From contig MU008172.1 in assembly GCA_010909165.1 (NCBI GenBank), positions 1,116,001 to 1,180,000 on the forward strand: a DNA stretch of 64,000 bases, written 5' to 3'. The notes under the pieces are model-generated. The model was not told the origin of the DNA. It worked only from the letters and a program-made list of their open reading frames with translations, and ran no database searches. This stretch comes from Anthoceros angustus. Its lineage: Eukaryota > Plantae > Anthocerotophyta. Shown here one piece after another: positions 21,701 to 49,839 of the stretch. Position 1 is the stretch's first letter, and each line of letters opens with the position of its first letter. A program made the translations under genes and the position numbers.

Positions 21701-22751
21701 GACTTATACTTCGTGAGCTGGGACTCAAATTTGGTGCCGGACTCCATGGATGTACCCATGCATTACACTCCAGCTCCCAAAAAGCTTCTGGATCATTCGG
21801 TCGCCGTGGAGGTATGTTTGTCAGGCGCGATATCTTTACAAGCGAGACTTGATTGTGCTGCAGGAAAAACAGTAGTAAGGCCTGAGACGTTGTCGGTTTT
21901 GGCAGGAGATCCAGCAGTTCTTCCTGGATCACATGTTGAACGACAGCCTGGGCGTCATCGCTAACGCGCATGTGGTCCACGCTGATAGGTCTCCATTGCA
22001 AGCCCGGGACCCGAAATGTCTGGAGCTCGCCAAGTTGTTCTCCATAGCTGTTGACTTCCCCAAGACAGGCTGTCCCGCAGTCATGCCCGTCAACCTGCGA
22101 CCCGACGAGTATCCCGACTTCATGGAGAAGGGGAACAAAGAGAAAACTTACGTCTCCTCTGGAATCCTGGGCAAGCTGTACAGGGCAGTGAGAGATGCGT
22201 CCACCGAGCAGCAGCCCATTCCAGTGCTTACGAAATCCGACATCGCTGCAGCCTTCGACCGTGATCTCATTGCTGAGGGCTTCCAAGAATATGTGGCGGA
22301 GGCCGCCTTCCTGAAAAGTGAATACGATGCGAAACTGGTTGCCCTTATGAACCAATATGGCATTGAAACGGAGGCAGAGCTGGTAAGTGGCAACATCCTG
22401 AACCTCTCCCGCTACTACAAAAGAAGGACTGGAGATGTGAAGGAACGAATTATGTTTGCCATGGCCTCTCTGCGAAGACAGGTAAAGAGATGGTTTGATC
22501 ACGGCTACCATGTGGGCGAGGATTTGGAAGCAGAGAGCCACCCACAGGGGATGTCGCATGCTCTCGTGGGCTACACACCGCAGCACGACATCTACGCCAA
22601 AGCATCCGCCTGGTATGTTGTAACTTATCACCCTGATTATGTCAACGATTGTGAAGTCACGCCGTTTTTAAGCTTTCCCTGGATCCTGTACGACAAACTC
22701 ATTGCCTTGAAGACCCAAGCCAGGAACAATGACCCTTGCACCCAGATGTGA
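18727..22751 (+). CDS. RDR: RNA-dependent RNA polymerase, RDR-alpha (RDR1/RDR2-like); exons 18727-19281, 19509-21562, 21661-21811, 21906-22751
   Basis: N-terminal RRM (TVLVANIP...GYGFVQF), FLAFSSSQLRE, AARMGQCFSSS, FSDGIGKIS, SAYQIRYGGYKGV, AKNPCVHPGDVR, catalytic PHPNECSGSDLDGDLYFVSWD, AVDFPKTG, KASAWYVVTYHP. Confidence 0.97.
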
Positions 22752-27384: not shown

Positions 27385-27654
27385 TGTAAGAACTAGCTCA
27401 GACACAACACAGCCTGGGCAACACACAGGATCAACACAGTTTGCAGACACAAGCAGAGGCAATGGATGGCACACGCAATAGCACCACTGGCTTAGATAGG
27501 CTCCACAGTACACATCAATATGGTGCACAGGGTGCTACATATATAGCCCTTAGGCTAGGCAACTATCGAGGAGGTAAGCCCTAGACTCGAGAGTGCAATA
27601 TCCTAGTATATCCTAATATACTAGAGTAAGTAGCAGAGGATTGAATCTCTAACA
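27385..27654 (-). repeat. Copia 3' LTR (270 bp)
   Basis: tgtaagaac...tctctaaca, abutted by a polypurine tract (GAAGGGGGAG on the minus strand, 27655-27664). Confidence 0.93.
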
Positions 27655-30613
27655 CTCCCCCTTCAAGCTAAAGCTACTTACCGATGCCAAGATCCGAACG
27701 AAAATGTGCAAACTTTGCGCCGCTGAGCGCCTTGGTGAAGATATCCGTCACCATCTCCCCGGTGCGGAGGTATGAGATCTGAATCACGCCTTTGTCAACT
27801 AAATCGCGCACATAATGAAAGTGTATGTCCTAGTCCTGCGTTGCCGCCACGGCAATCAAGGTTTGCAAGCTGTACATGCGAACTACCGAGGAGAAGGTCT
27901 CCTCGTAGTCCAGCCCTTTCACTTGAGTGAAACCGCGAGCCACTAGTCTCGCCTTATGCCTTTCCAGAGATCCGTCAGCATTATACTTCTTCTTGAAAGT
28001 CCACTTGCAGTCGATGACTTTTCTCCCGGGTGGCAAATCAACCAACGTCCAAACGTTGTTTTCAAGCATCGAATTATACTCAGTACGAATAGCTTCATTC
28101 CAGAACTCACCTTCAGGTCCGTTTCGTGCTTCCTCAATTGTGAGCGGATATCATCTTCGAGAAGAAAACACCATTCGTCCGCCACCATGTTGAGTCGGGC
28201 ATTCTCGAGGACCTTCCGCAAGGCCGAACCCTTGTCGACCGCCTCGAATAGCCGCTTGGTTCGCCCTCCGCATCCTCCAATGCCGGAACTAACTCCTCAA
28301 CTTGCCGCAAGCTCTTCCGAGTTTCCTCCTCAGAATTCCTCGGAACAATAGGTGGTATGACCTCACTTGGGATGTCCTCACCATCACCCTCCGGTGTGTG
28401 GTGATCCTCTTTGTCATTGGTGGATCCGGACAAGGAAGGTGTCTGGATAAACTCGTAGTCGAGGTCCGTGTAAATGTACCGTTTCCGTGATGACTTCCAA
28501 TGTTGTTCTCAGCGAACACGACATCAGAACTTTCATGCATCTGCTTGCTGACGGGATCCCACAATCTGTAAGCCTTTCGCTCATTCGCATAACCAATGAA
28601 GATGCACTTGATGCTTCTGTCGTCCAACTTCTTCCGCAATTGCTTAGGAACATGCACATATGCTACACAGCCAAACACTCTCAAGTGTGAGACATTTGGT
28701 TTCTCACCAAACCAAGCTTCATGGGGTGTCATAGAGCCACCTAGCGCCATGGTAATTGACATATTTTGTATGTGTACCGCCGGTGCCACTGCATCTGCCA
28801 AAAAATTTTGGCATCCTGCTTTCCGCTAGCATACTCCTAGCGCCATTGCAGATGGTACGATTCTTCCGCCGATCCTCGCTATGGCGTGTACCTTGTCACA
28901 ATCGCCTCTCAATTCCGGCATTGCATTCATCCTTGAAGAGTTTACTCAAATACTCTCCTCCCCCATCAGTTCGAAGTTTCTTCAACTTCTTTCCGGTTTG
29001 TTTCTCCGCAGTCGCCCTGAACATCTGAAACTCTTCTTCCGCAGGAAGTACATCGCTATTCTCCTGCTGTAGTCGTCGATAAACGAAATATAGTATCTCG
29101 CCTGTATCATCCTTGCTTCCACTTGCATTGGTCCGCAAAGATCAGAGTGGACAAGTTCCAAGACTTCTTTTGCTCTCTTCGTGATAGAAACATAAGACCT
29201 ACGGGGATGCTTGCCTTTCATACAAGCGTCACATAGACCAAGTTCTGCCTTCTGGAGCTCCATGCCTGTCACGAGCTTCTTCCGCTCCATCTCCAGGAGA
29301 AACTTCAAGTTGGTATGCCCAAACCGCTATGCCACAAGGCATTTCCACCTTTCTCCGACATCGCCGTAACCTCTTGGTCGTGGGGAACCTCCATCCGTAC
29401 AAGTTCTCAGACGGTGGCCTTTTACCACCACATCGCCGTGCATCTGACCATTCTTCAGAAACAAAACTTCCTTCTTTGTAAAAAGGACCTGCAGACCTGC
29501 ATCGGTCAATGGTGCCAGACATGAGATTTTTACGTAGGTTCGGTACAAACAGCGCTCCTTCCATTGCCTTGACCTCGCCGTCGAGCAATCTGAGCCTGTA
29601 CTCCCCCACACCCTCAACGCTTATCTCGCTATCATTCCCTAGGCGCACCGCTGTCTTCTCCCTCCTGTAGTCTGGAAGGAGCTCCTTATCCTTCACCATA
29701 AAGGATGTACATGCAGAATCTATCGTCAGGTATCATTTCGCTTGTGTAGCACGCTGCGGCGATACTTCTTCTGCGAGCGTTGCCTCCGCAACCTCACCTT
29801 TACTCTCACCCTCCGTGAGATGTGCGGTCTTCCGATCCTTGCAATCCTTCTCATAATGACCATACTTGAAGCATTTCCAGACCGCCCCTCTTCACTATTC
29901 TCTTGTCCTTCCGTCTCGCGAGGACTCCCCTTGTCCTTGTTCCGGTTGTTCCGCCCTTCCCTTGATGAACATCGCATGCTCCGGACTGAAGATCCCGCCA
30001 TTGGCCCAATCAAGGCGAGTCTCCTTCGCCAACATCTTAGAGGTGACCTCCTCCCATGTGAGAGTGTCTTGGGCTATTAGGAAATCTATGAACCCCGACC
30101 AAGCTTCGCATAGAACGATATAGAAACATCTTCTGTATGTCCTCCTGGATAGCAAAGCGCTCGTTAGCGATGCTAGCGTCAGAACATTCGTGAAAGGTGT
30201 CGATGTGCTTTCGCAAATCGCCTCCTCGAATACTTCAATGTCACACGACAAAACAAGTGAAATACTTCACCGCTCCTTCGCCATATTTCTCATTGAGAAG
30301 ATTCCAAATGTACTCCATGCCCTTGTCCGGTTCTCCGACCTTCACTGGACCGCCAGAGAGATTCATATAGGAGAGTCAGACTTGTGGTCTCTCCGCATCC
30401 ATTCTCTCGCCTCTCCCTCATCTTCGGTTTCGCTCTTGCCTCAATGCCATACGCCCTCCGCCATCGCGTAACCTTCATGGACCTTTTTCCATACATGGAA
30501 CTCCGCTCCATCAAACACCCGCCCTCAAGGCCGCGGTGGTTACTGAGCCCATCGCCATCACAACTCCGTCCTCTCTTATCAAGTCTCGCGATTAGTGTTC
30601 CCGCCTAATACCA

Positions 30614-30866
30614 TGTAAGAACTAGCTCGACACAACACAACCGGCAACGCATGTGATCAACACACATGCATACGGAGGCAATGAATGGCACACGCAATAG
30701 CACCACCGGCTTAGATAGGCTCCACAAGACATCAATATGGCGCATGTAGCTACATATATAGCCCTTAGGCTAGGCAACTATCGAGGAGGTAAGCCCTAGA
30801 CTCGAGTGCAATATCCTAGTATATCGTAATATACTAGAGTAAGTAGCATAGGATTGAATCTCAACA
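30614..30866 (-). repeat. Copia 5' LTR, copy 1
   Basis: Homologous to 27385-27654. Followed on the minus strand by PBS-like TGGTATTAGGCGG (30601-30613, resembling tRNA-iMet TGGTATCAGAGC) and flanked by TSD ATGTG. Confidence 0.9.
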
Positions 30867-32036
30867 ATGTGCTACCGGACATTGTCCCAACATCACTCAA
30901 AACAAAACTTCCTTCTTCGTAAAGGACCCGCAGACTGCATCGGTCAATGGTGCCACACGACATGAGATTTCTACGTAGGTTCGGTACAAACAGGCCCTTC
31001 CATTGCCTTGACCTCGCCGCCGAGCAACCGAGCCTGACTCCCCACACCCTCGACGCCTATCTCGCTATCATTCCCTAGGCGCACTGCCTTCTCCCTCCGT
31101 AGTCTTGAAGGAGCTCCTTATCCTTCACCATAAAGGATGTACATGCGTAATCTATCGCCGTGTATCATTTCGCTGTACGTAGCACGCGTGCGACATTTCT
31201 TCTCACAGCGTTGCCTCCAAACCTCACCTTTACTCTCACCCTCCGTGAGATGTGCGGTCTTCCGATCCTTGCAATCCTTCTCATAATGACCATACTTGAA
31301 GCATTTCCTGACCGCCCCTCTTCACTATTCTCTTGTCCTTCCGTCTCGAGGACTCCCTTGTCCTTGTTCCTTGTTCCGTCCCTTCCCTTGATGAACATCG
31401 CATGCTCCGGACTGTTGAAGATCCCGCCATTGGCCCAATCAAGTAGTCTCCTTCGCCAACATCTTAGAGGTGACCTCCTCCCATGTGAGAGTGTCTTGGG
31501 CTATTAGGAAATCTATGAACCCCGACCAAGCTTCGCATAGAACGATATAGAAACATCTTCGTATGTCCTCCTCGGATAGCAAAGCGCTAGTCGAGAAGGC
31601 ACATTCGTGAAAGGTGTCGATGTGCTTTCGCAAATCGCCTCCTCGAATACTTCAATGTCGCCACACGACAAAACAAGTGAAATACTTCACCGCTCCTTCG
31701 CCATATTTCTCATTGAGAAGATTCCAAATGTACTCCATGCCCTTGTCTGGTTCTCCGACCTTCACTGGACCGCCAGAGAGATTCATATAGGAGAGTCAGA
31801 CTTGTGGTCTCTCCGCATCCATTCTCTCGCCTCTCCCTCATCTTCGGTTTCGCTCTTGCCTCGGCAATGCCATACGCCCTCCGCCATCGCGTAACCTTCA
31901 TGGACCTTTTTCCATACATGGAACTCCGCTCCATCAAACACCCGCCCTCAAGGCCGCGGTGGTTACTGAGCCCATCGCCATCACAACTCCGTCCTCTCTT
32001 ATCAAGTCTCGCGATTAGTGTTCCCGCCTAATACCA

Positions 32037-32294
32037 TGTAAGAACTAGCTCGACACAACACAACCGGCAACGCATGTGATCAACACACATGCATACGGAG
32101 GCAATGAATGGCACACGCAATAGCACCACCGGCTTAGATAGGCTCCACAAGACATCAATATGGCGCACAGGGTGCTACATATATAGCCCTTAGGCTAGGC
32201 AACTATCGAGGAGGTAAGCCCTAGACTCGAGAGTGCAATATCCTAGTATATCGTAATATACTAGAGTAAGTAGCATAGGATTGAATCTCTAACA
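32037..32294 (-). repeat. Copia 5' LTR, copy 2 (part of a duplication)
   Basis: Same LTR, PBS, TSD and host flank as copy 1. Confidence 0.9.
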
Positions 32295-32405
32295 ATGTGC
32301 TACTGGACATTGTCCCAACATCACTCCGAAAACAACAACATCACTCCGAAATCAGAAGGCACATTCGCAACAGTGAAAAGATAGCCTGTTGCTGAAAGAG
32401 GCAGG

Positions 32406-34249
32406 TGTCGCGCCACAGCCGCATAGCAGGCATGAATACACATGTTATGCCATCAAAAAGATTCAACCACTTTCTACAGGACTTCGTGAATCACACCCAC
32501 AACCACATGAGTCACTACATCCGCATTCACACAACGCGCATAAATGGCAAAAATCACTCCATTTGAGCGGCTCTCCTCCTATGCACACACCACACTGGAT
32601 CACACACACCAAAAAAAACGCCTCGATCCGTCTGTTCTCTTGAATCGACATCAACAATCCACTCTAATGACGGATTGTCGACTTTTGTAGCCTACACCGC
32701 CGATCTTAATCACCGCCCGAATTCAAGGGCCGTGATCACGCCCGCACACGCCGGAGATCTTCGCCACGAGCCTTAATTATGCTTGTCCAGATTCTAAGCG
32801 TATGGCTCATGCCATGATGCCATCCTATCTCTACACTCACGCCATCACATTTACAAGATATGCATGCGCCTGGTGCCTACACCACTTATCCCACACACTT
32901 ACACCGACACACACACGTTATCACACCTGTGTCCTACCGCCTATCCTACCTCTATATGCCATGACAATGGCGCCACAGCCGCATAGCGGCATGAATACAC
33001 ATGTTATGCCATCAAAAGATTCAACCACTTTCTAAGGACTTCGTGAATCACACCCACAACCACATGAGCTGTCACTACATCCGTACCACAACGCGTACAA
33101 ATGGCAAAAATCACTCCATTTGGAGCGGCTCTCCTCCTATGCACACACCACCGCTGGATCACACACACCAGGTGCACCGAAAAACGCCTGGGATCTGTCT
33201 GGCTGTTCTCTTGAATCAGACATCAACAATCCGCTCCCAATGACGGATTGCTGACTTTTGTAGCCTACACCGCCGCCGATCTTAATCACCGGCCCGAATT
33301 CCGAAGGGCCGTGATCACGCCCGCACACGCCGGGAGATCTTCGCCGCTCAGCCTTAATTATGCTTGTCCAGTATTCTAAGCGTATGGCTCATGCCATGAT
33401 GCCATCCTATCTCTACACTCACGCCATCACATTTACGATATGCATGCGTGGTGCCTACACCACTTATCCCACACACTTACACCGGACACACACACGTTAT
33501 CACACCCGGTCCTACCGCCTATCCTACCTCTATATGCCATGACAAGTCACCCAACGCAGAGCAGTGCATGGATACACATGTTATGCCATCAAAAGATTCA
33601 ACCACTTTCTACAGGACTTCGTGAATCACACCCACAACCACATGAGTCACTACATCCGTACCACAACGCGTACAAATGGCAAAAATCACTCCATTTGAGC
33701 GGCTCTCCTCCTATGCACACACCACACTGGATCACACACACGTGCAGAAAACGCACGATCATGCTTTATTCTCTTGAATCGGACATCAACAATCCACTCT
33801 AATGACGGATTCGACTTTTGTAGCCTACACCGCCGATCTTAATCACCGCCCGAATTCAAGGGCCGTGATCACGCCCGCACACGCCGGAGATCTTCGCCAC
33901 GAGCCTTAATTATGCTTGTCCAGTATTCTAAGCGTATGGCTCATGCGGCCATGATGCCATCCTATCTCTACACTCACGCCATCACATTTACAAGATATGC
34001 ATGCGTGGTGCCTACACCACTTATCCCACACACTTACACTGGACACACACACGTTATCACACCCAGGTCCTACCTGCCTATCCCTACCTCTATATGCCAT
34101 GACAACTGTCGCGCCACAGCCGCATAGCAGGCATGGATACACATGTTATGCCATCAAAAAGATTCAACCACTTTCTACAGGACTTCGTGAATCACACCCA
34201 CAACCACATGAGCTGTCACTACATCCGTACCACAACGCGTACAAATGGC
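32406..34249. repeat. Terminal repeat array (+ strand): Y 32406-32548, X 32549-32966, Y ~32967-33105, X 33106-33544, Y ~33545-33680, X 33681-34104, ac, Y 34107-34249
   Basis: A ~565-bp Y+X unit repeated three times plus one extra Y (~143 bp) adjoining the element body. Confidence 0.92.
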
Positions 34250-35300
34250 CCCCCTGCCAAAGTCGGGCTGCTCGAAAGAACTGGTTGCGTTGTGTAAGTA
34301 CCACTTTGGCACTCATATGCCATAAAATCGCCGATAAAACCTCCGGAACATGCCGTCTCGAAGCTGTGGTTCAGACGGTTTATCATGCTCCATTCTTCCT
34401 GTGGCCAACAGCGCGGCCACACGCCGATCTTCTGGGTCAAAATATTCATCCACCTGCGCTTTGCCCAACCGCACCCGCTCCTTGGCTCAATGGCGAGCCA
34501 TGAGCTCCTCCTCTTCATCACTATCCGGTTCAGTCTTCACTCGAGGCAGCTGCGGGCCGTTCAAACCATTCACATAATATTGTTTTTCTATACACTGAGC
34601 CCTAAGAAACTCCCCCACATTGTCGTTGAGCAGATACCAAGATTCCAAAGTGGCCTCATCCCATTCCAACACTCCTGTGCGTAAGCAAGCAAACACCCTA
34701 TAAAAAGCTCGCGGGTAACCAATGGCAAAACGCCCCGCTTTCTCCCTATGCAGATGACTTAACCACACTTTCGACTTCAAATCACCGGCTTCTTTGTGCT
34801 CGACATTAAGAACCCTTCGTGGCCAATGATCAAACACCTGATGCATGAACAGATGATGTTCCAGTTTTCGGAATGCCCCTTCACAATAACTGGTCCATAC
34901 GAAGCTTTGCCTGTTCATGCCCCTTCCTGCCAGCTCAAAAAGATCTCGATGATCATAAGGAAAACTCTCAATGTTGCAGATCTCATGATGTGATTCTACA
35001 TACAGCAAAAATGCTTGCAACTCCAGAAATGTCTCGGGTCATTCGGGCTTGCCAGGCTGATACTTCCTTACCAAAGGCGTTTTCCATTTGTCTTCCCATG
35101 GCCTGTCTGGAAACTGTGGAACACTTGTGCTCATTCTCCGGAAGCATGACTTGCAAGTGTGGTCCGCTTCCATATCCATGTCAACCACCTGTGTTGATCC
35201 CAATGGGAATCCTTCACTTGATACTCTTTACAATTTGGAAAACGGGTGCCGCTAGTGTTGGTCAAACAACCATATGAACTGATTGATTTCTGGAAGACTA
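34250..35300 (-). pseudogene. Extra ORF of unknown function downstream of integrase; longest open segment 34487-35020
   Basis: 177-aa protein-like segment (FLLYVESHHEIC...YPRAFYRVFACL...KTEPDSDEEEE) in the element's sense orientation. Boundaries uncertain. Confidence 0.5.
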
Positions 35301-36084
35301 CCTATGTTTGCAACTGGCTTTGCAAAGCGAGTGTCAGGCCTGTTAATCAACACAAGCTATCCTGATTGAAATGACTGAATTCCAACTTCATCTCACCTGT
35401 GAGTCGTTCAGTCACTGTTACTTGCCGTTTATGCAGCAAACAGACCATGCACCCTCCACTGCTCGTGCTCATACCCAGATGCTTGATGCCATGACCACCC
35501 TAGCATCTGTTCTCCACGCCCCAGTCCTTCTGTGATCACCTCCTTCTCACTCGTCACTTGAGCTGCCTAGGGTCCCCATCTACAACCTACAACCTGACAA
35601 CAATTTGGATGATCGTTAGTCGTGCGCTCCGGCTACCTGATGCTCCATGTCAGACGCTTCCGCACTGGAATAAATCACCGCGGCGAATCGCCTTCCCGCA
35701 CACCCACACGGGCGGTTGCCGCAATCGGCCTCCTCCCGACATGCACTGTGACAACTCACAATCGCTTACCTTCCTCGCACCGCCTCTTGAGAACCGATGC
35801 ACTCAACACATGTACTTCTCCAGCAGATCTCCGACACTTCTCCAAGAAATCGCTGAATTCCCCAACCAACCGCAGAATCCTCTTGTTCCCGCTAATCCGT
35901 TGTTTACACTTGATCGCTCTCGCGCTTGCCGCCCATACTGCATGCCTCACATAACCCGTGTATCAATAAGGCAAATAACGGGCTTTATAGGCCTACCCTT
36001 CTTATTGACGTTCTTCGCACACCCACACTCTGAGTGCGTGTTTCATTCGGCCCCCCAGCTTCCTTTCGCCCTAACTTTTCCATC

Positions 36085-36230
36085 GTACATTTGTGACAAA
36101 ACCATTCTCCTTCTGGAATCGCCTTCAACGGTGGCCGAAGACAAAAGACATGATACCCTTGGTTGCACTGATCACACAATAGCATCAGTTCAGGATCAGT
36201 GATTTGACCACATTGTTCGCATGGCAGGTC
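36085..36230 (-). other. PHD finger at the integrase C-terminus
   Basis: CEQC...MLLCDQCNQGYHVFCLRPPLKAIPEGEWFCHKC is a complete C4HC3 PHD finger. Confidence 0.95.
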
Positions 36231-36397
36231 AACAGGTGGCTTCCATGCCTGTGGTTGTATCCGCGTGTCAAGATTCGGCAAGTGGCACGGGGCCAGATGC
36301 CGCATATGTTCCTTGCACCGGCGCCCGTCTTGCCCTTCCAACTCGATGACCCCTTGCTCACCAACGTTCACCACTCACAAAATTAACCGTCCCGTGC

Positions 36398-37300
36398 TCA
36401 CGTCCAAAGTACCAGAAGGACGGTGTTGCAAATAAAGTCACCTATTTCGAACTTTCTGGCCTTTGGTTTCCATGATCCTCCTCGTGTGAATGCGTACCTC
36501 AGCTGATCTCGGTGTTGCGCGATAGCCAGATTGTCCATTGCCATGGGTATCACCCGTTGTAACAACTTGGCCCAGTTTCGCAACTCTGAGCAGCATTCAT
36601 TCACATTTTGTGTCCAATCCACTGGTTTGGAATACGTGTCCGCCACTATGTTGGGTAGCACAACATTCCTGCCAAACATGATATAATAAGGATCAAGTTG
36701 CCTGTGGCTGCTCAGACATCGATTCTCAGAGCCCAAGGCAACATACGGTAGTAACTCATCCCAACAGTTAGGCTCGACCTCCGTGCAATACTTGCGAAGA
36801 GCATCCTTGAAAGTTTGCACCTTTCGCTAAACCATCACCGAGGATGATCCCGGATGCGCTATGATCTATCAAACTCCGATCTAACAACGCTTGGAATTCA
36901 CCAATTCGCTTCTCGATCCGTCAAGACCTCCGCATGCCTTCCATACCGCCAAAACACACTGTAGGAAAGCCCGTGCCGTGAACTGTGAAGTTCTGACTGG
37001 AAGGAAGGCCAATTCCACCCACTTGGAGAAGTGTTCTATCATAAGCATACAATGCTTGTTGCCTTGCTTGGTCAATGGTAGCTCGCATGAGGTCAACGGA
37101 CCATCGAAAGAACAATCCCGAATGGGCAGCGAATGCAACACCACATCCCGGCCGTTGAACCTCGCTTAACCGCATCAAGCAAAGACACCTTGCCACCACT
37201 CGCCGACATCTAATACATTCCTGCACCAAAATACGCACTCTTCAGCATATGATGCGTCCTTTTTACACCGAAATGCCCAAGTGTCTTGTGCACTTTACTC
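36398..37300 (-). pseudogene. Gypsy integrase (Zn finger + rve core), frameshifted
   Basis: HKTLGHFGVKRT, WSVDL, MIEHFSKWVEL, QTFKDALRK...WDELLPYVALG, PYYIMFGR, NLAIAQHRDQLRYA. Confidence 0.9.
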
Positions 37301-37619
37301 ACTATCTGTTCTCGTTCCTCTATAGGAGGAACCACTTTACACACTCCATGATCCGTCATTAATAACTTACCATCCCTCCATGTGTATCTCATGATTTTCC
37401 GTCGTAACTTTTGAATGGCGGCAGCATCCAGTCCAACTACCTGTCCTTCCTTCAATAGCTGAATAGCATGCCCATACTTCCATATGTCTCGTCCTCCCTC
37501 ATTGAGTTGTTTTCTTCCTTCCTGATGTGCGGCCATGAGTGCCATATACATGCTCGGCATGTAACGAGTATACCCAAAATCCTACCGCGCACCGGTCGTA
37601 TCCTTGTTATCAGACACTG

Positions 37620-37960
37620 GGTTTCTGCTAAGTCCATCAGCATTGTGGTGTACTTTGCCTGCCCGATGTACTATATGCATATCGTATTCTGACAGTAGCA
37701 ACGCCCACCTTGCGAGCTTGCCACTCAACTTCATGTTCATTAACAACAACGGCCGTGATCACGAGTTGGAAGCTCCGAACAAATAAATTAAGTGTAGAAC
37801 CGCCCCACACCAGCCTAAACATTCAATTAATGATGAGTAATTGGCTTCCGGAGTTGTTCGACCTACTGCATACGCAATCACTCTTTCTCTTCCTTCCTAA
37901 TCCACCTGCAAGGACGATTCCAGCTTGCACCCACTCAGATATGAGTGAATGGTTTGTCAA
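37620..37960 (-). pseudogene. Gypsy RNase H, frameshifted
   Basis: Fragments VIAY..RSN, DH..L, GKLARWALLLSEYDMHIVHRAGKVHHNADGLSRNP across frames. Confidence 0.85.
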
Positions 37961-37965
37961 AATCA

Positions 37966-38585
37966 GGCCGCTTGAGCATAGGCCTTTCTGACAACTGGTC
38001 CTTTAACTCTTGCCAAGCATGTTCATGTTTCGCTCCCCGCAATCGGACTCCCTTCTTCATCGATCACACTTTTGCAAGTGCGCTCATGTTTTGATGAATC
38101 GATGATAATAGTTGACGAGTCCTAAGAATGCTCAACGCGACGCCCTTGGTCTCGCATAAGATTGACACCTCGCACTTTGCTAGTTGCGGCAAAGACGCCT
38201 CCGCACAATCTTGTGACCCGATATTCTATCTCCTTGTAAGCAAACTTGCACTTCTTTGATGTGCCTTCCCCGTAACCGAAGCCTCTGCAGCAATGTTTCG
38301 AGGTGTTGAATGTTCTCCAAACCGTCGCGAACACTAAATGTCATCAATGTAACACTCACGAATGGCAATCCTTGCAACTCCAAGTCTCGCCACCACGAAG
38401 TAGATGGGCGCCAACCCAAAAGGCATCGCCTCCCATTCCCACAACCGTTTTGCCCCAAGGCCGTTTTGCATTTGTCTTCTTCCTCAATGACGATTTGATT
38501 GAAACCAGAGCTAAGTCCAACGTCAGAAATACTTGGCTTCAACGCGCCAAAGATTTCATCCGGGGTAGGCATGGGATATCGATCC
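37966..38585 (-). pseudogene. Reverse transcriptase, copy A; further copies at ~39135-39745 and ~40950-41575
   Basis: RYPMPTPDEIFDAIGEAKYFTTLDFRSGFNQI...KTAFW...MPFGL...CYIDDI...KCKFAYKEIEY...LRAFLGLVNYYHRFI, consensus of the copies. Confidence 0.92.
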
Positions 38586-39939
38586 TCGCTCGATCTTCAC
38601 ATATTTTCCATACATGAGTTGAATGCCCACTGCTTTTCCAATTGCTCCGCACTATTTGCAGATTTGTGTACTTGTCCCGACGGTTTGGAAACTCTCCCTT
38701 CACCCATCATCCATGCGACCTTCCTTTCTTGTCGACTTGCGTTAGTGGCTATTCCCACACTCACCAACCATTGCACACAAGTCGATCAAACGCTTGTCCC
38801 AAGTTTACATCCGAAGCTCGACACACCTCGCGTAGGTGCCGCCATCACAAACCCATCGCTGCTCGCCTACGATCGTGGGCTCCCCCACTTCCTCACCATT
38901 CATATTCAATACCATGCCCGCCCCACCTCGGCGAAGGCATATGACACCGACCAAAGGTGGGCCATGCTCTCCGGGCTCACCCACAATGTTGACAGGATAA
39001 TGTGGCAGCGTGTCCATCCTATTCACGCCACTGCCTCGCCTCCTCAAGGATCCCATCCAGGTTCCGCTTGCTTGGTGTGGTTAAACTTTGCCCGAGTATT
39101 TCCACACTCGCAATGTTCGCCCAAAATCAGCCGCTTGAGCATAGGCCTTTCTGACAACTGGTCCTTTAACTCCTGCCAAGCATGTTCATGTTTCGCTCCC
39201 CGCAATCGGACTCCCTTCTTCATCGATCACACTTTTGCAAGTGCTGCTCATGTTTTTGATGAATCGATGATAATAGTTGACGAGTCCTAAGAATGCTCAA
39301 CGCTGACGCCCGTGGTCTCGCATAAGATTGACACCTCGCACTTTGCTAGTTTGCAGACGCCTCGCACAATCTTGTGACCCGATATTCTATCTCCTTGTAA
39401 GCAAACTTGCACTTCTTTGATGCCTCTTAACCGGATACGCAAGAATGTTTCGAGGTGTTGAATGTTCTCCAAACCGTCGCGAACACTAAATGTCATCAAT
39501 GTAACACTCACGAATGGCAATCCTTGCAACTCCAAGTCTCGCCACCACGAAGTAGATGGGCGCCAACCCAAAAGGCATCATTCCCATTCCCACAACTGTT
39601 CTTTGCCCCAGAAGGCCGTTTTGCATTTGTCTTCTTCCTCAATGACGATTTGATTGAAACCAGAGCGGAAGTCCAACGTCGTAAAATACTTGGCTTCGCC
39701 AATCGCGTCAAAGATTTCATCTGGGGTAGGCATGGGATATCGCTGATCCTCGCTGTTCAGATCTTCACATATTTTCCATACATGAGTTGACTGCCCACTC
39801 GTGCTTTCCACCTGTTCCGCACTATTTGCAGCATTTGTGTACTTGTCCTGACGGTTTGGAAACTCCTCCCCTTCACCCATCATCTGTATGCGACCTTCCT
39901 TTCTTGTCTGACTTGCAGTTAGTTGTGTGGCTATTCCCA

Positions 39940-40850
39940 CACTCACCAACCACTGCACACAAGTCAGATCAAACGCTTGTCCCAGAAGTTTACATCTGTA
40001 AGCTTCCGACACACTCGCGTAGGTGCCGCCATCACAAACCCATCGCTGCTCGCCTACGATCGTGGGCCCCCACTTCCTCACCATTCATATTCAATACCAT
40101 GCCCGCCCCACCTCGGCGAAGGCATATGACACCGACCAAAGGTGGGCCATGCTCCGGGCTCACCCACAATGTTGACAGGATAATGTGGCAGCGTGTCCAT
40201 CCTATTCACCTGTTGTGACTGTCTGCCCTCCTCAAGGATCCCATCTAGGTTCCGCTTGCTTGGTGTGGTTAAATCTCGGTGCTGCCTGAGTATTTCCACA
40301 CTCGCAATGTTCGTCCAAAAACTGCGGAGACGATGAGCGTATGACCCTGTTTGTACCGCGTCAATGATGAACTCCTCTCCCAGCCAGCTTCTGATCTTTT
40401 CATAGCTTTCTTTTACATGGTCTCTCTTGTCGAAAGCTCCGCAAACATTCTCGCAGTAAATACCAACATGCCGGATTGCACCGCTGCACTTCTCTCAGAA
40501 TCCGTGTTACTTCCTCCGCCAACAGACACCGCTGTTCTCGCCACGTCCAAATTTTGGAGAAGGTCTTGCACTCCCATCCCGCAATCACCATGTCAACCGG
40601 CATCTTATTGCCTCGGACTGCGTGCTTTTCCTACCAACATCACATCGGGAAGTCCGGTCCGCACCCTCTTACGGCTTCCATGCTCGAAGCTCGACATTTT
40701 TGTAGCTTGATAATCCCGGATTTGGCCACCGCCCGAGTCTTCTCATCAATCTCTACACACGTATACTCCGATCCGAATCCCACATCGAAACACACTCCCG
40801 CTACTAATTCCTGAACACAACTCCATGAGGTGAATTCCTTGTTCATGAGC
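39940..40850 (-). pseudogene. C5 cytosine DNA methyltransferase domain (DNMT3-like) inside pol, copy B, frameshifted in this assembly
   Basis: Motifs in canonical order: I IHLMELCSGISSG (~40801-40835), II YTCVEID, IV VDMVIAGWECK (~40566-40598), VI (L)ENV (~40445-40453), VIII IIDAVQTGSYAHRLRSFWTNI (~40306-40369), IX EPTIV...AMG, X RCKLLGQAFDLTCVQWL (~39947-39997). Confidence 0.9.
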
Positions 40851-41739
40851 ACGCCATTAAATCACTTGGTTATCGATCCGTAGCTCCGACTCTCCCACGA
40901 TCGCCGCTTGCACTCCCGGTATACAGAGTGAACGGTTTGTCAAAATCGTGCCGCTTTGAGCATAGGCCTTTCCGATAACCGGTCCTTTAACTCCCGCCAA
41001 GCATGTTCATGTTTTGCCTAATCGCCATCGGACTCCTTCTTCATCGATCATACAATACTAAGTGCCGCCATGTTTTGATGAATCGATGATAATAGTTGAC
41101 GAGTCCTAAGAATGCTCTCAACGCAGCGACGTCCCGTGGTCTCGGCATAAGATTGACAGCCTGCACCTTTGCTAGTTGCGGCAAAGACGCCTCCGCACAA
41201 TCTTGTGACCCATATTCTATCTCCTTGTAAGCAAACTTGCACTTCTTTGATGTGCCTTCAACCCGAATCGAGCCTCTCGACAATGTTTCGAGGTGTTGAA
41301 TGTGTTCCTCCAAACCGTCAAAACACAAAATGTCATCCGTAACACTCACGAATGGCAATCCTTGCAACTCCAAGTCTCGCCACCACGAAGTAGATGGAAG
41401 CCAACCCAAAAGGCATCGCCTCCCATTCCCACAATGCTCTTTGCCCCGTAAGCCCATTTGTCTTCTTCCTCAATGACGATTTGATTGAAACCAGAGCTAA
41501 GTCCAACGTCAGAAATACTTGGCTTCGCCTAATCACCAAAGATTTCATCCGGGGTAGGCATGGGATATCGATCCTCATTGCTCGATCTTCACATATTTGC
41601 CATACATGAGTTGAATGCCCACTCGTGCTTTTCCAATTCCCGCACTATTTGCAGATTTGTGTACTTGTCCCGACGCTTGGAAACTCCCTTCACCCATCAT
41701 CCATGCGACCTTCCTTTCTTGTCTCGACTTGCTAGTTGT

Positions 41740-42605
41740 GTGGCTATTCCCACACTCACCAACCATTGCACAAGTCGTCAAACGCTTGTCCCGGTTTACA
41801 TCCGAAGCTCGACACACCTCGCGTGTAGGTGCCGCCATCACAAACCCATCGCTGCTCCCCACGATCGTGGGCTCCCCATCTCCTCACCATTCATATTCAA
41901 TACCATGCCCGCACCTCGGCGAAGGCATATGATCGAGCCAGACCACCGCAGGGCCATGCTCCGGGCTCACCCACAATGTTGACAGGATAATGTGGCAGCG
42001 TGTCCATCCTATTCAATTGCTGATCGCCCGCCTCCTCAAGGATCCCATCCAGGTTCCGCTTGCTTGGTGTGGTTAAACTTTGCCGTTATTTCCACACTCG
42101 CAATGTTCGCCCAAAATCAGGAGACGATGAGCGATGACCGCTTTGTACCAAGGCCAATGATGAACTCCTCTCCACCTTTTCATCTTTTCATAGCTCACAT
42201 GGTCTCTCTTGTCAAAGCTCCGCAAACATTCTCCAAGAATACCAACATGCCGGATTGCACACTTCTCTCGAATCCGTGTTACTTCCGCCAACAGACACTG
42301 CTGACCACGTCCACTTGGAGAAGGTCTTGCACTCCCATCCCGCAATCACCATGTCAACCGGCATCTTATTGCACCGTGCTTTTCCTACCAACATCACATC
42401 GTTAAGTCGGTCCGCACCCTCTTATGGCTTCCATGCTCAAGCTCGGTACATTTTTGTAGCTTGATAATCCCGGATTTGGCCACCGCCCGAGTCTTCTCAT
42501 CAATTTCTACACACGTATACTTCGTGATCCGAATCCCACATCGAAACACACTCCAGCACTACTAATTCGAACACAACTCCATGAGGTGAATTCTTGTTCA
42601 TGAGC
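41740..42605 (-). pseudogene. DNMT domain, copy C; a partial C-terminal copy A lies at ~38745-39125
   Basis: The same motifs recur: CGIRITKYTCVEIDEK, PVDMVIAGWECKTFSK, LENVCGAFDKRDHV, AHRL. Confidence 0.88.
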
Positions 42606-43179
42606 ACGCCATTGAATCACTTGTTATCGATCCGTAGCTCCGACTCTCCCACGATCGCTTCACTTCTTCCGCAATTGCCGGTGATTCGCCATACTTGCAT
42701 CTGTTGCTGTCGAACACGCTCTCTTTCCAAAGCTTCCTTCACGGTGGTGTACCACATACATGTCATTCGATGTGGTGCCTTCTTCCGACACCTCATGACG
42801 TGCCAGGTCCTGTGTCTCTTCCCACACCTCCTCTCGGTGAACACTTTGCCGCAAGCCGTGAATGCCAAGATACTTTGATCTTTCACCATGCCTCCTCATG
42901 TCCAGAGGAATTCTGGCAACATGTGTGAAATCTCCATCTCGCCATCTTGGCCTATAGAATGCCTGAGTGCGGATCCACCCCATGGCTGGTCCATGCGTGG
43001 CATCCGCCTCCTAACAACACATCATAATTTCGCATCCGAAACGACAATGCACTTCCACCACACATGCGTCGCCGCTACTTATACTCTATCCGATCGGATC
43101 GCGAGTCATCCCCATCACTGTTCTTTGGTACCGCATGTGGTGATCCGACTCACATGGCTTCAACTTGTCTCCATACATT

Positions 43180-44560
43180 GAGCGCCTTGCACCCGTGCCC
43201 CAAAGACCGGATCCGCACTGTCTACTAGCACACACTCCGGCAAAGCCATTGATGACCTCTCGTTCTTGGTTCTTCACCAATGCTATGCCACCTTTCCCCG
43301 GTCTGGTTTTAGATGGTCACCACGTAGGTGACAAGCCCGACACCGTGCTCAATTCAATGGCTTCCTTCTTAATCCAGCCCGCATTGCTTGTCCGAACGGC
43401 CAGCCCGACCCTGTGTCACGCAAACTTACCAAGGGTGCATCCATGGCTTTTTCTAACAGACTTCGTGATTCTGAGCTACCTCCTCCCGATGTGGTGCCGC
43501 CTCGCCCGAACTGTCAAGGATTTGGGCATTCTCAACTGGTTCCTACCCCCACCAGTCTTCACTTTCACATCCTTACCAAATCAATGCTTCCCTTTGATCC
43601 GACTTGACCTTCCACATCAACGCAAACACATCTTCGTCCGAATCATATGTTTCTCGCCGACGACATGTCCTTCTTTATGCTTACGCCATGGCCAACCGCC
43701 TTGCACCAGACTCACCCAAGAAGGCCTTCCGAGTGTAACTCACACCTGTCGCTTGTCTATTGTTCCATCTCCTAGGCCCTTGGGCTTGAGCTCAGATGGG
43801 CTTGCCAAGCGCCTGCAGCCGGCTTACCACACGCCCGCAAGCTTCTTTTTACTTTGACCCGCCAACACGATGCTCACACTCATACGCCTTGTGCGGCCCC
43901 TTACATCGTAAACACTTGTCAGACGTTTTGGAGCTCACAGCACTGTGGGCCATTTGGTCCTTTGACGGCGAATCCCTGCGTTGAGTGTTCACCTGCATGT
44001 GCTCGCGATAGTGGGACTTCCCATGCTGCTTATGGGTGTTCGAAGTACTGGCATGTCCTCTGACCACATTGTGCTCCTCCCAGTAGGCATTGGTGACAGC
44101 ATCTCCTTTCATAACTCTCTCGGCCATCTCGTAGGCCTGTTCCAACTCATAGTCTGCCCCATGTAACATATGCAGAAAGTTGGCGATCACCCTCCTCTGC
44201 CTTCCTGGCAAGGCTGCAATATATATTTGCGCTGCTTCCCTCATGGTTTTCACCTTGGTGTCTTTCACCACCGTGCAGTCAGATTGCATCTTAGTGGCTC
44301 ATTTGGTTTGATCACAAACTTGACAACTCCCGGATTTTCTCAATGGACGCCAATCGGAAACATCTCAAAGAAACTTGACGAACATTTCGGCCCACCGATA
44401 AGTGATAACCTCGATTAGATGAACTGATGAGCCCGGGTTCGTCATCATCGATCTTGGCAGCTTTCCTTGCCCGTTTCATTCGCAGCGAAGTATGAGCATC
44501 CTGCAAAATCTTTTCTTTACAATCACGATAGTGTTAAAGCTTCACCAGCCAGAAATGCGC
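43180..44560 (-). pseudogene. Gypsy gag (Zn knuckle) and start of the aspartic protease
   Basis: ORF 43849-44289 with CLRCKGPHKAYEC knuckle, a second knuckle remnant CKAVGH near 43685-43705, and VLVDS(G)AD protease-like motif near 43210-43235. Confidence 0.65.
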
Positions 44561-45235
44561 TCATCTTTCTAAGTGCCATCTCGTGCGTGAATTCGACTTA
44601 TATTTGAGCACCATCTCATCGATCGCCATCTAAATTTCTCTTCAAAATCAGCCGAGACATACTACCGTGTCTACCCGTGAACACATCATTTTTGCTGGGC
44701 GCTGGTTCATACTCCATCCTGGCGCCACCACCACTCTCTTCAAAATCAATGGATCTGATAGAGTGTGACTCCACTCAACCGACCACCGCCTCGGGAACCG
44801 AGGGAGGTCGTGCAATGTGGTTGAATGCTTCCGATTTCGGTGTGCTTTCGTTCATCCACCGACCGAGTAAAACACCATTGCCAATCCCTCCCCCTTCGAG
44901 AGACTATATAAGGCATTCCACAAAGTTGGTGCCGCCTCCCCGCGTCTAGTCCGCCAACCATGCCAGTTTGTCGATCACCTCATTCCAGAGGCGTGGCCAC
45001 AAATCACGGCTCATTCCCAGTTGGCCCACTCGAATGGGTCTCGCTCGCATAAACAAAGAACGAATAGTCCAAAGCGCTTTCACGGCAATCTACCATGGAC
45101 TTATCGGTATGGTCCACCGTCTTTGGATCATCGACTTCAGCGTCCTCCGTTTTCCGCCCGAATCTTGGCTCCTCTGTCGAACCCTTCGAGTCGCCTTGCT
45201 GCCTCGTGTGGCTTCACCAAGGGGATTGTTGATGC

Positions 45236-45661
45236 AAAATCACTCCATTTGGAGCGGCTCTCCTATGCACACACCACACTGGATCACACACCGTGCACAA
45301 AACGCCTGGATCCGTCTGTCGTTTTGAATCGACATCAACAATCCGCTCCCAATGACGGATTGCTGACTTTTGTAGCCTACACCGCCACCGATCTTAATCA
45401 CCGGCCCGAATTCCGAAGGGCCGTGATCACGCCCGCACACGCCGGAAGATCTTCGCCGCTGAGCCTTAATTATGCTTGTCCGTATTCTAAGCGTATGGCT
45501 CATGCAGCCATGATGCCATCCTATCTCTACACTCACGCCATCACATTTACAGTATATGCATGCAGTCAGGGTGCCTACACCACTTATCCCATACACTGGA
45601 CACACACACGTTATCACACCCAGGTCCTACCTGCCTATCCCTACCTCTATATGCCATGACA
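45236..45661. repeat. 5' terminal repeat X only (~426 bp)
   Basis: Matches X of the left array from 'aaaatcactccatttggagcgg' to 'tatatgccatgaca'. Y is absent here. Confidence 0.92.
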
Positions 45662-45962
45662 CAGGCAAGGGAGAAAATCGATGTGAAGGGCATCAATTGT
45701 GGCTCTTTATTCGCTTTTAGACATATTCCGACGAATCCTTTCTTGATACGACCTCGCAGCGTGTTGGGTATTGTGATTTCACACTGGGGACCATACACGA
45801 AGGCACGAACACTCACTGGTGGTTTTATTTCACAGGAGAAAAACTCCGACAGGCACAAACTCTGGTAAAACCCATCACACAGTCTACACACTGATAGATC
45901 TAGTACTGGACACACAAACTGGGAGACAGTTCCTTATTTGGAAGGGGGGCCCAGGCAAAAAC

Positions 45963-48900
45963 CTAAGCCTCCAAGTGACGGTCCCCTTGTTCACTCTTAA
46001 CAGCAGCCTGCAGCGTCTCCGTCATCATTCGAGCGGCTGCTTCCAACGACATTCCTTCCATGTTTGAGGCGCAAGATTTGTCGGCGTCGGGCCAATACTC
46101 GTCCGTCGTCAAAAACTGAAAATGGACATGTAACCAGGCATCGTGAGCTTAAACGACTACAGGAAGGGCAATGCGCGGAAGGAAATTTCAGCTAAACAGG
46201 CAGCGCTCACCTTCACTTGTAGCTGAAGAGATTTGACGTAGTTGATTGCTTTCTCCAGCATGGTTACCAAATCCACCTGCAAGGACGCAAGCTTACAGGT
46301 TAAGCAAGCTGGCGAGCTATCACTATAAAGCAAGCGGGAGTGTAGAAACTTGCGCACCTTGGAGCCGTTGGGAACGAGATCTTGCAGAACCTTGAGCCTC
46401 TCACTTATTCGCTCTCGCCGATGCTGCGACAAAGGGCAAGAGTGCAGAATGTGAGACGTGAGGTTCGAAATGAGCTCGACTAGCGGGCAATTGATCAGCC
46501 GTGCGATGCATTCAACCAGTTGACTTAAAGCTTACCCTTGCAGCGATGCTTTGCGGATCGTTGGCACTGCCCTGCCTAGCCCTTGGCTTGAGATTAGTAT
46601 TGAGCGCGGGACCTACGCTCTTGTGGCTGGCTGAAGTAGAAGTGGAGCACGCCTTGGTCCCGCCTGCGACAGCTGCTTGCACTTGCTGCCCCTGCCCCTG
46701 CCCCTTTGCATTGTCCTGCAATTCAAGCGGAATCAGCCTGAGCCACGGTGGAGTGACGCTCTCCGCGTTCATGAAATTAGAAATTTGCGCCTAATGAAGC
46801 AAAATACATGTAGGCAGTCAGGACGAGCTTACCTTAAGCCTCTTGCAGGCGGGATCCTGCGTGTCGTCCCCGTTCAGCCGCTTGCGCTGACTACACTCGT
46901 TGCTATTAACTTCCACACGGGTGGGGCTGACGTGAATATGATTGCCAGCAGTGGCGACTACGGCGCGCCCGCTGGTATGCACGGGCGCTAGATTATTCAC
47001 CTTGTTGGACTGCCAGGAACCAACGCCAGCAGCGGCAGCTACAGCCTTCCGGGCAGCCTGTGAGACATTGTCGGAATGGCTGGCTACCCACCCGGTGATG
47101 CTGCTGCTCAAGCTGTCCAGAGTCATGGGCTGGCAATAGCTGCTGCTTGCAATTGCTGATCCCAGGGGTAGCTCGAAAATATTTGCCGGCAACGACGTGG
47201 GCCACGACCGCTTGCAGTGAGAATTCCCCTTGTCGTAGGCATGCCCCATGTCGGTGCTCATGCACGGCGTGGCGTGCGTAGCATACTCCCCTTTCACTGC
47301 GACACTGGAGGTGGCGTCCGACACGACTCCCCTTGTGCAAGTGCTGATACCCAGAGACGACAAATTGGGAAGATTATGCTGACTCCGGATCCGCTGCCCC
47401 CCCTCCTCTTGGCTCGCTTCCAAACTCACTCCCTGTAGACTCTCCAGGAACGAGGTGCAGGCAACCACGTCTAAATGAGGTGTCGGAGAGGAGGACTGGG
47501 CATGTGGATGGCTGAATGCTCTGAGCGTGGCCATGGATCCAGAGCTGTTCTTGGTATCGGCGCGCGCACAGCTGGCGAAATGAGCATGGTCCTGAAAATT
47601 GGTCATCTGAATTCCAGCTCCGGATCCGTCGACGCCTGCACTGCTGCGCACTGCTGCATCTAGAACGGTAACTCGCGGAGAATCATCAGACGCTGGAGGC
47701 ACTCCCCCGAATCCCATCGGCTGTGACAGCTGAGAGTTAGCACAGGGCTGATGCACATGTACAGGGGGCCCGGGGTTGGATCCGCTGGCCGAGCCGATGG
47801 GGTAGGCAGGACGCACGCAATCCATCACTCCTCCTGATGATTCCAAGCTCCCGAACAAAGAATTGGACTGCTGCATGATGACGCTGCCTGGCCCGGGCGA
47901 GGGGACCCGGGCCTGCAGAGGCCTGGTGGACATCACTTGGGCCGTGGCCACCGCAGTTGCAGATGCTGCATCATGGCTTTCCGAGGCCTGCATGTTAAGC
48001 ACGCTGCGAGGGGAGTTCCCGGCGCCGGGACCATGACCCTGCGCGGCCGGGCGGGTACCGCTGCTGCTACCGCCCCGCGGAGGGGTGCAGAGAGGAGCCA
48101 ATGGCATTGGACCCTCTTCGTACTTGCAGCGTGGCCTCGACTCCTGGCCTGGTGAAGAGTCGCGAGGCGCTCTGGTGCAGGTGCTGCTCTCAGCAGGCCT
48201 AGGGAGGCTCTGACTCACCAACTGCATGGATATGGCCGGGGCTATTGGACTGACGGCAGCGCCACCATAACTGCATCTGGCGGCTCCGACGCTCAGCTCC
48301 TGGATGTCGTCTTCCAGAATCAATTCGGTTGGATCCAAAATGAAGCCCGAGTCGCCTGTAGCCGGCCACGACATGTCCACACGCTGTCTCTTGGCCCCGC
48401 CCGACAGGTCAGTCTGGGTGCCGGAGTGGACGCCGTCGCTTGCTCCTGAAGAGTGGCTCGCAGCATCCACGTCGCTAGACGTATGAGCTCCTGAGGGTGC
48501 ATCGCCCGAGCCCGTGAACGTGCAAGTGCCTTCGTCGATGTCGGCCCAGGCGGCGGCCCAGCTGGGGCAGTCTTCCGGCCAGCCGCACGACTGAATGAGA
48601 CTGCCGATGTCGCTGCTCAGAGTGTGCAAGTTCATACCACTCCCAGAGCCGGAGCCGGAGCTGGAGCCTGGCTGCGGAAAGCTGGGATGGCCATACAGGA
48701 AGGTCGAGGCCAATTGGTCGTCCGGACCCAAGGACGCGGACGCGGCCCGGAGCGTAGTCGACGATGACGGACTTCGAGCAGAAGGCGGCTGCAGGTTGAA
48801 GAAGGGCAGGCGAGGGTTGGCGCCATGCAGGAACACATCGGTTGTACCGTGCAACTGGGACTCGGCCAACCCTGTTCCCACTCCCACTCCTGCAAGGCTC

Positions 48901-49247
48901 TTGGGGAGATGATGATAGTCGCGATGCGATAGCAGCCCCAAGCTGGACGCAGCACCTCCGGATCCTGCGTGGAGACCTGGCAGATAGCTGCTGGGAGACA
49001 CAGGAGTCTTGCCCGCTTGCAACAGGCGGGGCGTCTGGCTTGCAAAGCTGCCATTTGCCGTTACAGCTGCAGCTTGGTTAACGTTGGCACCGCACATGCC
49101 CACCATGGAGAAGTTGTCGTTGCTGGCCAGCAGATGGCCGGCAGGATGCCAAGATGAACGCAAGATACCCGGATCCTTGGCTAAAGGGTTGCAGTGCAAC
49201 ACCGTCTCTGTCATATTGGCAGTGCTCCTGGACGAACGGAAATTCAT
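45963..49247 (-). CDS. RSL1: Class I RSL (RHD6/RSL1-like) bHLH transcription factor, ~984 aa; exons 49247-46833, 46790-46536, 46423-46358, 46276-46211, 46115-45963
   Basis: [26 protein letters not shown]|[22 protein letters not shown]|[22 protein letters not shown]|FLTTDEYWP is a bHLH plus RSL domain of class I. All introns are GT-AG, phase 0. The start codon is assumed from the longest ORF. Confidence 0.92.
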
Positions 49248-49839
49248 AACTCGGACTGGTCTGCTCCAATGTCGAGGTCCAGTTGTAGATCCGATATATA
49301 GATAAAAGAGACCACAGGTGCACCAGGTCTCTCACCAGTGTTACTTGTGAACGCTGTCTTATTCCACGATGCTTGAAGAAAAAATATTGAGTAGATACTG
49401 GATGCTCACACGAGTCGACATGAGTCCGAGAATAATCTCTGAAAAAATTGCTAGCAGATCAGTCCTTGCAGTGTGTACAGTGAGGTGAAAAGTCACACAC
49501 GTTTGTACTTGCAGCAGGAACCTGGAGCCAACAAACATGTGTCCACACGTAAATACATTTGGTGACAAACCAGACTTAATAAGGGCAACCAGAAAGTGTG
49601 TAAGAGCAACTAACCAGGAAGAACTGTATGCATCAGCAACTCTCCCCAAAAGCCAGCGCCGTGACTTTTAGACAGGAGCATGCTCGAGCTAAGTAGTGGA
49701 GCAACAACCAGTAGACAGACCTGGAAGAGGGCCCAGCCACAAGAGGAAACAAGTTAGTGGCATCGTTAGTGAATCCAGCTACTACTACTTGTGTGGCGCG
49801 GGGAACGGAATCACGACAAGACAAGGGTCATGGGAAAGC

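Follow-up and report, generated by a model that had tools for sequence, protein, structure and literature searches.

A Ty3/gypsy integrase with a C-terminal PHD finger predicted to read unmethylated histone H3, in an element that also encodes a DNMT3-like domain

The feature under study is the C-terminal PHD finger of a Ty3/gypsy integrase, and this integrase–PHD arrangement prevails in a large gypsy family that has been described in part. Judged by its residues, the finger likely binds the unmethylated amino-terminal tail of histone H3 and would thereby tether the integration complex, a reading to which we assign a probability of roughly 60%. Target-site choice appears a more likely use of the finger than a DNMT3A-like reader/writer unit formed with the DNA methyltransferase (DNMT) domain of the same element, and as relatives lacking the DNMT keep the PHD, the finger is likely not a dedicated partner of that enzyme. 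Coordinates refer to the window, i.e. the whole 64,000-nucleotide stretch of DNA that was analyzed.

The finger is encoded by a stop-to-stop frame on the minus strand (35988–36374; 129 aa), in which residues 52–96 (36087–36221) supply all eight ligands of the C4HC3 pattern. It scored 45.8 bits against Pfam PF00628 (cut-off 24; E = 6e-12), and a PDB search returned the ATXR5 PHD (5VAB, E = 2.4e-16) as the closest solved structure, followed in this order by fingers of CHD4, PHF12, Lid/KDM5, UHRF1, and BAZ2. The AlphaFold model based on 47 sequences exhibited pLDDT values of 92–97 across residues 51–100 of the frame, and the modelled finger superposes on the PHDs of UHRF1, ATXR5, BHC80, and BAZ2A with an rmsd of 0.9–1.4 Å. 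The family HMM attributed the first ~40 residues of the frame to the end of the integrase C-terminal region (36264–36437, minus strand). Between the integrase core and the PHD frame the window carries one in-frame stop, just before 36374, and one frameshift near 36435; in the relative P0001 (78% identical), a single frame connects the integrase core with the first part of the PHD. Together, Pfam, the PDB, and AlphaFold corroborate the preliminary description of an intact C4HC3 finger at the integrase C-terminus, in the position of a chromodomain. A Pfam chromodomain was detected neither in the 95 relatives scanned nor in 107 window frames, and the label chromovirus was rejected on this ground. 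The proposed KDM5-PHD1/BAZ2-like class held as well, as an ATXR5/KDM5-PHD1/BAZ2 type without aromatic cage, based on PDB matches, fold matches, and residue mapping. The identity of an ADD domain as in DNMT3 or ATRX was rejected: the finger is a canonical PHD, the 60, 50, and 60 PDB and fold matches listed include neither a DNMT3 nor an ATRX chain, and the sequence upstream is that of integrase alone, without the extra GATA-like finger of ADD domains.

With P0001 as the query against 1.84 billion representatives we obtained 6,582 matches, of which the best 150 were analyzed, a sample slightly biased toward PHD-bearing matches, as the query contains the first PHD residues. Within it, 144 of the 150 integrases are followed by a PHD after a median gap of 10 residues, the other six ending inside the integrase or within 70 aa of it, too early for a judgement, and the eight ligands are complete in 129 of the 132 PHDs that reach the last cysteine. 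The same junction was present in 77 of 80 metagenome loci; viral contigs yielded one weak locus, without PHD. This bears directly on the view that the finger has no role in the element and stems from a recent capture of host sequence or from a chimeric assembly. The many indel-rich tandem duplications of 1–2 kb, which render the window assembly unreliable, would accommodate such an origin, but the recurrence of the integrase–PHD junction across relatives and metagenome loci refutes it, and we consider it extremely improbable.

We mapped the residues of the finger onto the contacts published for ATXR5 (PMC5499861) and KDM5A-PHD1 (bioRxiv 715474), as given in the available parts of these sources. 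The pocket for A1 of H3 is complete in the window (L65, P87, G89, and W91), and among the 144 PHDs from the best 150 of 6,582 matches it is retained at P87 in 133, at G89 in 104, and at W91 in 131. The essential R2-binding aspartate, D68, is present in the window and in 135 of these 144 fingers. The second R2 acid of ATXR5 and KDM5A is replaced by an asparagine (N71) and is an aspartate in only 9 of the 144, and the K4-contacting glutamate of KDM5A is a proline (P61), as in ATXR5, with glutamate found in 63 of the 144. The candidate cage positions, which we take to be those forming the K4me3 aromatic cage in other PHDs, are occupied by P51, M64, and G73; a tryptophan at 73, before His-1, occurs once among the 144 PHDs, and an aromatic residue just before Cys1 three times. 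The missing cage as the mark of an H3K4me0-type PHD is a principle that we adopt from the accessible text of bioRxiv 715474. Since the A1 and R2 residues are kept and the aromatic cage is absent, reading of unmethylated H3K4 is predicted; the best prediction that the sequence affords is a finger that binds the free H3 amino terminus and prefers unmethylated K4. Complexes of ATXR5, BAZ2A, UHRF1, and ORC1b with unmodified H3 are among the top fold matches; close matches with other readouts are UHRF1, solved with unmodified, K4me3, and non-histone peptides, and Ehd3 with K4me1. As far as PMC5499861 and bioRxiv 715474 describe them, the ATXR5 PHD and KDM5A PHD1 share with the window finger the fold, the A1 pocket, the R2 aspartate, and the lack of a cage; the window finger differs by the asparagine noted above and by its fusion to an integrase instead of a histone-modifying enzyme.

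The same residues can be set against a role apart from the insertion site, in which the target of the finger is the intasome or a non-histone partner, be it in integrase multimerization, through an H3-like host factor, or in chromatin assembly on the cDNA. PHDs of the same class accept H3 mimics as ligands (PAF15 and Stella for UHRF1), the ATXR5 PHD mainly tunes its own enzyme according to the accessible part of PMC5499861, and across the family the K4-pocket residues vary next to a fixed A1/R2 pocket. We nevertheless regard such a role as rather unlikely, as the entire pocket for the H3 amino terminus is conserved across a deeply diverged clade and the finger occupies the position of the targeting domain known from gypsy elements, the chromodomain, in the literature available to us.

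In the targeting reading that we prefer, the protease would release an integrase–PHD protein, whose PHD would dock the intasome on nucleosomes with unmethylated H3K4. Insertion would thereby be biased away from H3K4me3 and active promoters, by analogy with the chromodomains of chromoviruses, and the DNMT would likely act on the element's own cDNA or on the new insertion. If the PHD does avoid H3K4me3, it would represent a compact natural module for keeping integration off promoters. That chromodomains target gypsy integrases is established, whereas for the PHD such a role is so far a suggestion in the papers found. For a PHD-bearing gypsy of Chlamydomonas, the available text of PMC9940879 gives intergenic insertions at 2.6 times the chance level, a bias that may reflect selection according to its authors. 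The insertion context in the window, with the end of a bHLH gene ~500 bp away and a copia element 110 bp away, decides nothing on targeting.

The element spans 13.3 kb on the minus strand (32406–45661) between two 4-bp target-site duplications, CCTG (left copy, 45662–45665; right copy, 32402–32405). Its minus-strand order is repeat A, probable gag and protease, DNMT, reverse transcriptase (RT), RNase H, integrase, PHD, an extra frame, a G-run, and the 3' repeats. The 5' copy of repeat A (45236–45661) starts with TGTCA, and no tRNA primer-binding site was seen after it in the window. The probable gag and protease region (43100–44600) was delineated by eye, with a zinc-knuckle-like Cys/His motif near 43900, and gave no confirming Pfam or blast match. 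The DNA methyltransferase that the preliminary description placed in the same element is real and lies outside the PHD frame, upstream of the RT. Its first copy, with approximate ends at 41850–42640 and motif IV at 42340, precedes the first RT copy; the second, approximately 39905–40880, displays motifs I, II, IV (Cys ~40579), VI, and VIII across frames and scored 76 bits with the family HMM at 40138–40458. RT pieces, identified as three tandem copies by Pfam and the family HMM, cover 38390–38590, 39542–39754, and 41212–41588. The RNase H pieces (37684–38033; Pfam and family HMM) are followed by the integrase, with no DNMT in between. The H2C2 zinc-binding and core domains of the integrase (36431–37320) are frameshifted and were recognized by PF17921 (32.6 bits) and the family HMM (170 and 28 bits). 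The extra coding region beyond the PHD (34250–35980, minus strand) matched no Pfam family, and comparison with 81 loci and 151 proteins gave nothing similar; it contains an open frame of 183 aa (34490–35038), part of a longer broken frame between the PHD and the 3' repeats, for which weak SUKH/SMI1-like atlas leads all stayed below 0.9. The G-rich polypurine tract (34249–34258) directly precedes repeat B, the position it also has in relatives. The 3' repeats follow as B-A-B-A-B-A-B (32406–34249), ending in GACA. Given a family layout of B-A-B, stutter is the probable source of the two additional AB units.

Besides these repeats, the DNMT–RT stretch is present in three tandem copies, and the repetition of the RT is probably assembly stutter too. 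Tandem duplications of 1–2 kb, differing mostly by indels of 1–3 nt, were observed at 2089–5640, 29459–32335, 37943–42658, 49840–51710, and 57430–61132. Indels exceeded substitutions in most duplicate pairs (100 versus 77 in one pol pair, 20 versus 12 between two A repeats), a pattern that we read as long-read error combined with assembly stutter, so that copy numbers in the window are unreliable. The many frameshifts of the window copy are probably in large part long-read error as well. The CpG observed/expected ratio was 0.88 for the element and 0.65–0.77 for host genes, and given this low depletion the copy may be of recent origin and less damaged than its sequence suggests.

Several of these traits allow the element to be classified. 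It has a DDE-type integrase, the gypsy order RT–RNase H–integrase, and a short target duplication, and carries a DNMT3-related domain inside pol that is frameshifted in the window and in one frame in relatives. The repeats are split in the DIRS-like manner, A-coding-B-A-B, both in the window and in 5 of 77 loci, in which both ends were covered and the 4-bp duplications were exact in three and had one mismatch in two. The available description of Phygy in REXdb lists an NCGN target site, a tRNA primer site, and no extra domain; this label was rejected, since the duplications read CCTG, ATAT, AATG, and AAAG and no primer site was seen.

Within the split repeats, the B/A junction of the window (34100–34110, minus strand) consists of the right-end motif, 2 nt, and the left-end motif, and lies one base off the family palindrome GACAGCTGTC. 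An exact GACAGCTGTCA forms the internal junction in 10 of 77 loci (L007, L045, L048, L052, L063, L065, L066, L067, L071, and L074), high-GC and DNMT-less ones included, a count that considers the first two pattern matches per locus, with many loci ending too early and L066 and L071 seemingly redundant. The palindrome GACAGCTGTC often sits within a longer CATG...CATG-like palindrome and is preceded by a G-run, and again no tRNA primer site was seen after repeat A. According to the accessible part of PMC1180852, the foamy virus integrase cleaves a palindromic LTR–LTR junction of such a kind. By analogy, this suggests a possible way for a DDE integrase to work in an element with split repeats, namely by cutting the internal palindromic junction.

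With one DNMT fragment as the query, searches of a word index and of the PDB gave no match, and the family HMM did find the domain. The DNMT profile of the family retrieved DNMT3A first in the PDB (E = 7e-17), ahead of DRM and HhaI. In the alignment, from which L069 was left out as it contains a stop, the catalytic cysteine of motif IV is kept; of 94 rows, 54 have a glutamate in front of it (E-C) and 13 the usual proline (P-C). The position of the domain differs between relatives. Among the best 150 of 6,582 matches, 33 proteins carry the DNMT between RNase H and integrase in one protein (RT-RH-DNMT-INT-PHD), 27 more are partial, with their start inside or ahead of a DNMT located in front of the integrase, and one has the DNMT before the RT. 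The latter order is shared by the window and by the low-GC copies among the 80 metagenome loci, while seven loci, mostly of high GC, encode RT-RH-DNMT-INT-PHD in a single stop-free frame. In three relatives (P0074, L059, and L065), no DNMT intervenes between protease and RT or between RNase H and integrase, and all retain the PHD with its H3-binding aspartate. Nine proteins with RNase H adjoining the integrase lack their upstream part and were, except for P0074, not counted as DNMT-less.

Integrase trees were calculated from 133 of 213 rows, those of unknown layout being dropped, and from a second set thinned to 54. The elements with the DNMT before the RT form one group with the window (0.99; the same split reached 97.6 in the second tree), and the DNMT tree unites them likewise (0.997) except for P0081, which stands apart on a long branch. 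L059 and L065 nest within the DNMT-bearing group as sisters to P0057 in both integrase trees (0.895; 95.7), which points to a loss of the DNMT; for P0074 the domain may have been lost or never present. As the trees have no outgroup and P0013 shifts its position between the two integrase trees, we limit the claim to one DNMT family in two positions. No informative relative among the best 150 of 6,582 carries the DNMT and lacks the PHD. The PHD kept without a DNMT, together with the variable DNMT position, indicates that the PHD tracks the integrase and not the DNMT, and the best explanation is that the DNMT constitutes a separate, movable, and dispensable module that is not needed for the job of the PHD. 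Co-occurrence of PHD and DNMT was observed in part: many relatives unite both in one polyprotein, whereas the three DNMT-less ones keep the PHD by itself.

In animal DNMT3A, an ADD domain reads H3K4me0 beside the DNMT3 catalytic domain. Like DNMT3A, the window element encodes a DNMT3-type domain and a predicted H3K4me0 reader in one polyprotein; unlike DNMT3A, its reader is a canonical PHD behind the integrase, up to ~1,000 residues away from the DNMT. A coupling after the DNMT3A model, in which the PHD brings the DNMT to chromatin with unmethylated H3K4, or activates it there, and fresh insertions receive methylation immediately, is in keeping with the DNMT3 type of the enzyme, with the 33 complete and 27 partial proteins among the best 150, with the lack of DNMT-bearing relatives devoid of a PHD, and with the seven stop-free frames, in which the DNMT could stay joined to the integrase–PHD part. 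Yet in the clade of the window RT and RNase H separate the DNMT from the integrase, the PHD is unchanged where the DNMT is absent, none of the matches listed makes the finger an ADD domain, and motif IV mostly reads E-C instead of P-C. Furthermore, the DNMT of KnitGypsy-Dnmt3 alone was inactive in yeast, a result that its authors call inconclusive in the available text of PMC5890265. CpG depletion as a trace of self-methylation was also rejected, as the median observed/expected ratios of high-GC loci did not differ between DNMT-bearing (0.56, n = 10) and DNMT-less ones (0.61, n = 4), in a comparison of small numbers from different hosts with some redundant loci. We therefore consider the coupling possible but unlikely, and the DNMT3-like reader/writer pair put forward in the preliminary description gives way to target-site choice as the preferred use of the PHD. 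Quite unlikely as a whole is a broader scheme in which a green-lineage gypsy clade would have rebuilt the DNMT3A logic in its particle, the integrase PHD picking H3K4-unmethylated nucleosomes, the co-packaged DNMT methylating the incoming copy, and the DDE integrase cutting the palindromic junction (GACAGCTGTC) of a split-repeat, tRNA-independent cDNA. The clade offers a clean system in which reader and writer functions are separable, as its PHD is fixed, its DNMT occupies either of two positions, and members without a DNMT serve as natural controls.

Compared by description and not by sequence, the window element matches the type of KnitGypsy-Dnmt3 (de Mendoza 2018, PMC5890265), for which the available text reports an intronless DNMT3-like domain in a gypsy pol and DIRS-like repeats (Fig. 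4c legend). Both share the DNMT3-like domain in pol, the split repeats, and a streptophyte host; in the window, the DNMT precedes the RT, and the RPN13 gene, 43% identical, sets the host apart from Klebsormidium nitens. The term PHD does not appear in the main text and three supplements of PMC5890265, and its Fig. 4c or main supplement may show one. A pairing of PHD and DNMT3 in a gypsy element was not found stated in the literature searched, a set exclusive of subscription papers, Repbase, the cited thesis, and bioRxiv supplements. The data suggest that Gypsy-DNMT3 elements are a widespread family.

PHD-bearing gypsies of green algae, mentioned in the preliminary description, are indeed known from Chlamydomonas (Gypsy-7a_cRei, PMC9940879; REM1), and fusions of PHD or chromo domains to transposons are common according to the accessible literature. 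Like the window element, Gypsy-7a_cRei (PMC9940879) and REM1 are described as gypsies whose polyprotein includes a PHD, a domain proposed to keep harmful insertions in check. Unlike it, Gypsy-7a_cRei has no DNMT listed and is drawn with two LTRs in the part of PMC9940879 at hand, and descriptions of REM1 call it a chromovirus whose integrase is truncated and reversed. Chromoviruses carry a chromatin reader on the integrase tail as the window element does, theirs being a chromodomain and that of the window a PHD. EpiLTRs (chromo, DAM, and DNMT; bioRxiv 2026.05.21.726589) likewise combine a reader with a cytosine methyltransferase, but as described there their DNMTs are sister to DNMT4, whereas the window DNMT is DNMT3-like.

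The genes flanking the element in the window (TFIIB, RPN13, D27, RDR, a phosphatase, and bHLH) are plant-like. The RPN13 gene (10694–11629, plus strand) has both domains in one open frame, and its product shows 43–49% identity to the top named relatives, from liverworts, moss, lycophyte, seed plants, and Klebsormidium. This makes the host a streptophyte distant from all of these named relatives, perhaps a hornwort. An RNA-dependent RNA polymerase gene lies at 18610–22748 (plus strand) and the bHLH gene, with a frame of 837 aa, at 46160–49331 (minus strand). A Ty1/copia element with LTRs (27385–32294, minus strand) ends ~110 bp from the right end of the gypsy element, and an AT-rich array of ~98-bp repeats (3155–5805) is located inside a duplicated block.

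Beyond the PHD, high-GC relatives such as L030, L034, L066, L075, L078, and L079 extend by a long tail of ~300–450 residues, which matched no Pfam family except for one weak Tudor-like match; the median tail among 121 proteins from the best 150 of 6,582 was 273 residues. The window and the low-GC copies have almost no tail. In L032, the RNase H region of one family member harbours an insertion of a second one, and in P0036, P0087, P0152, and one further aligned relative a G-patch domain lies between DNMT and integrase.
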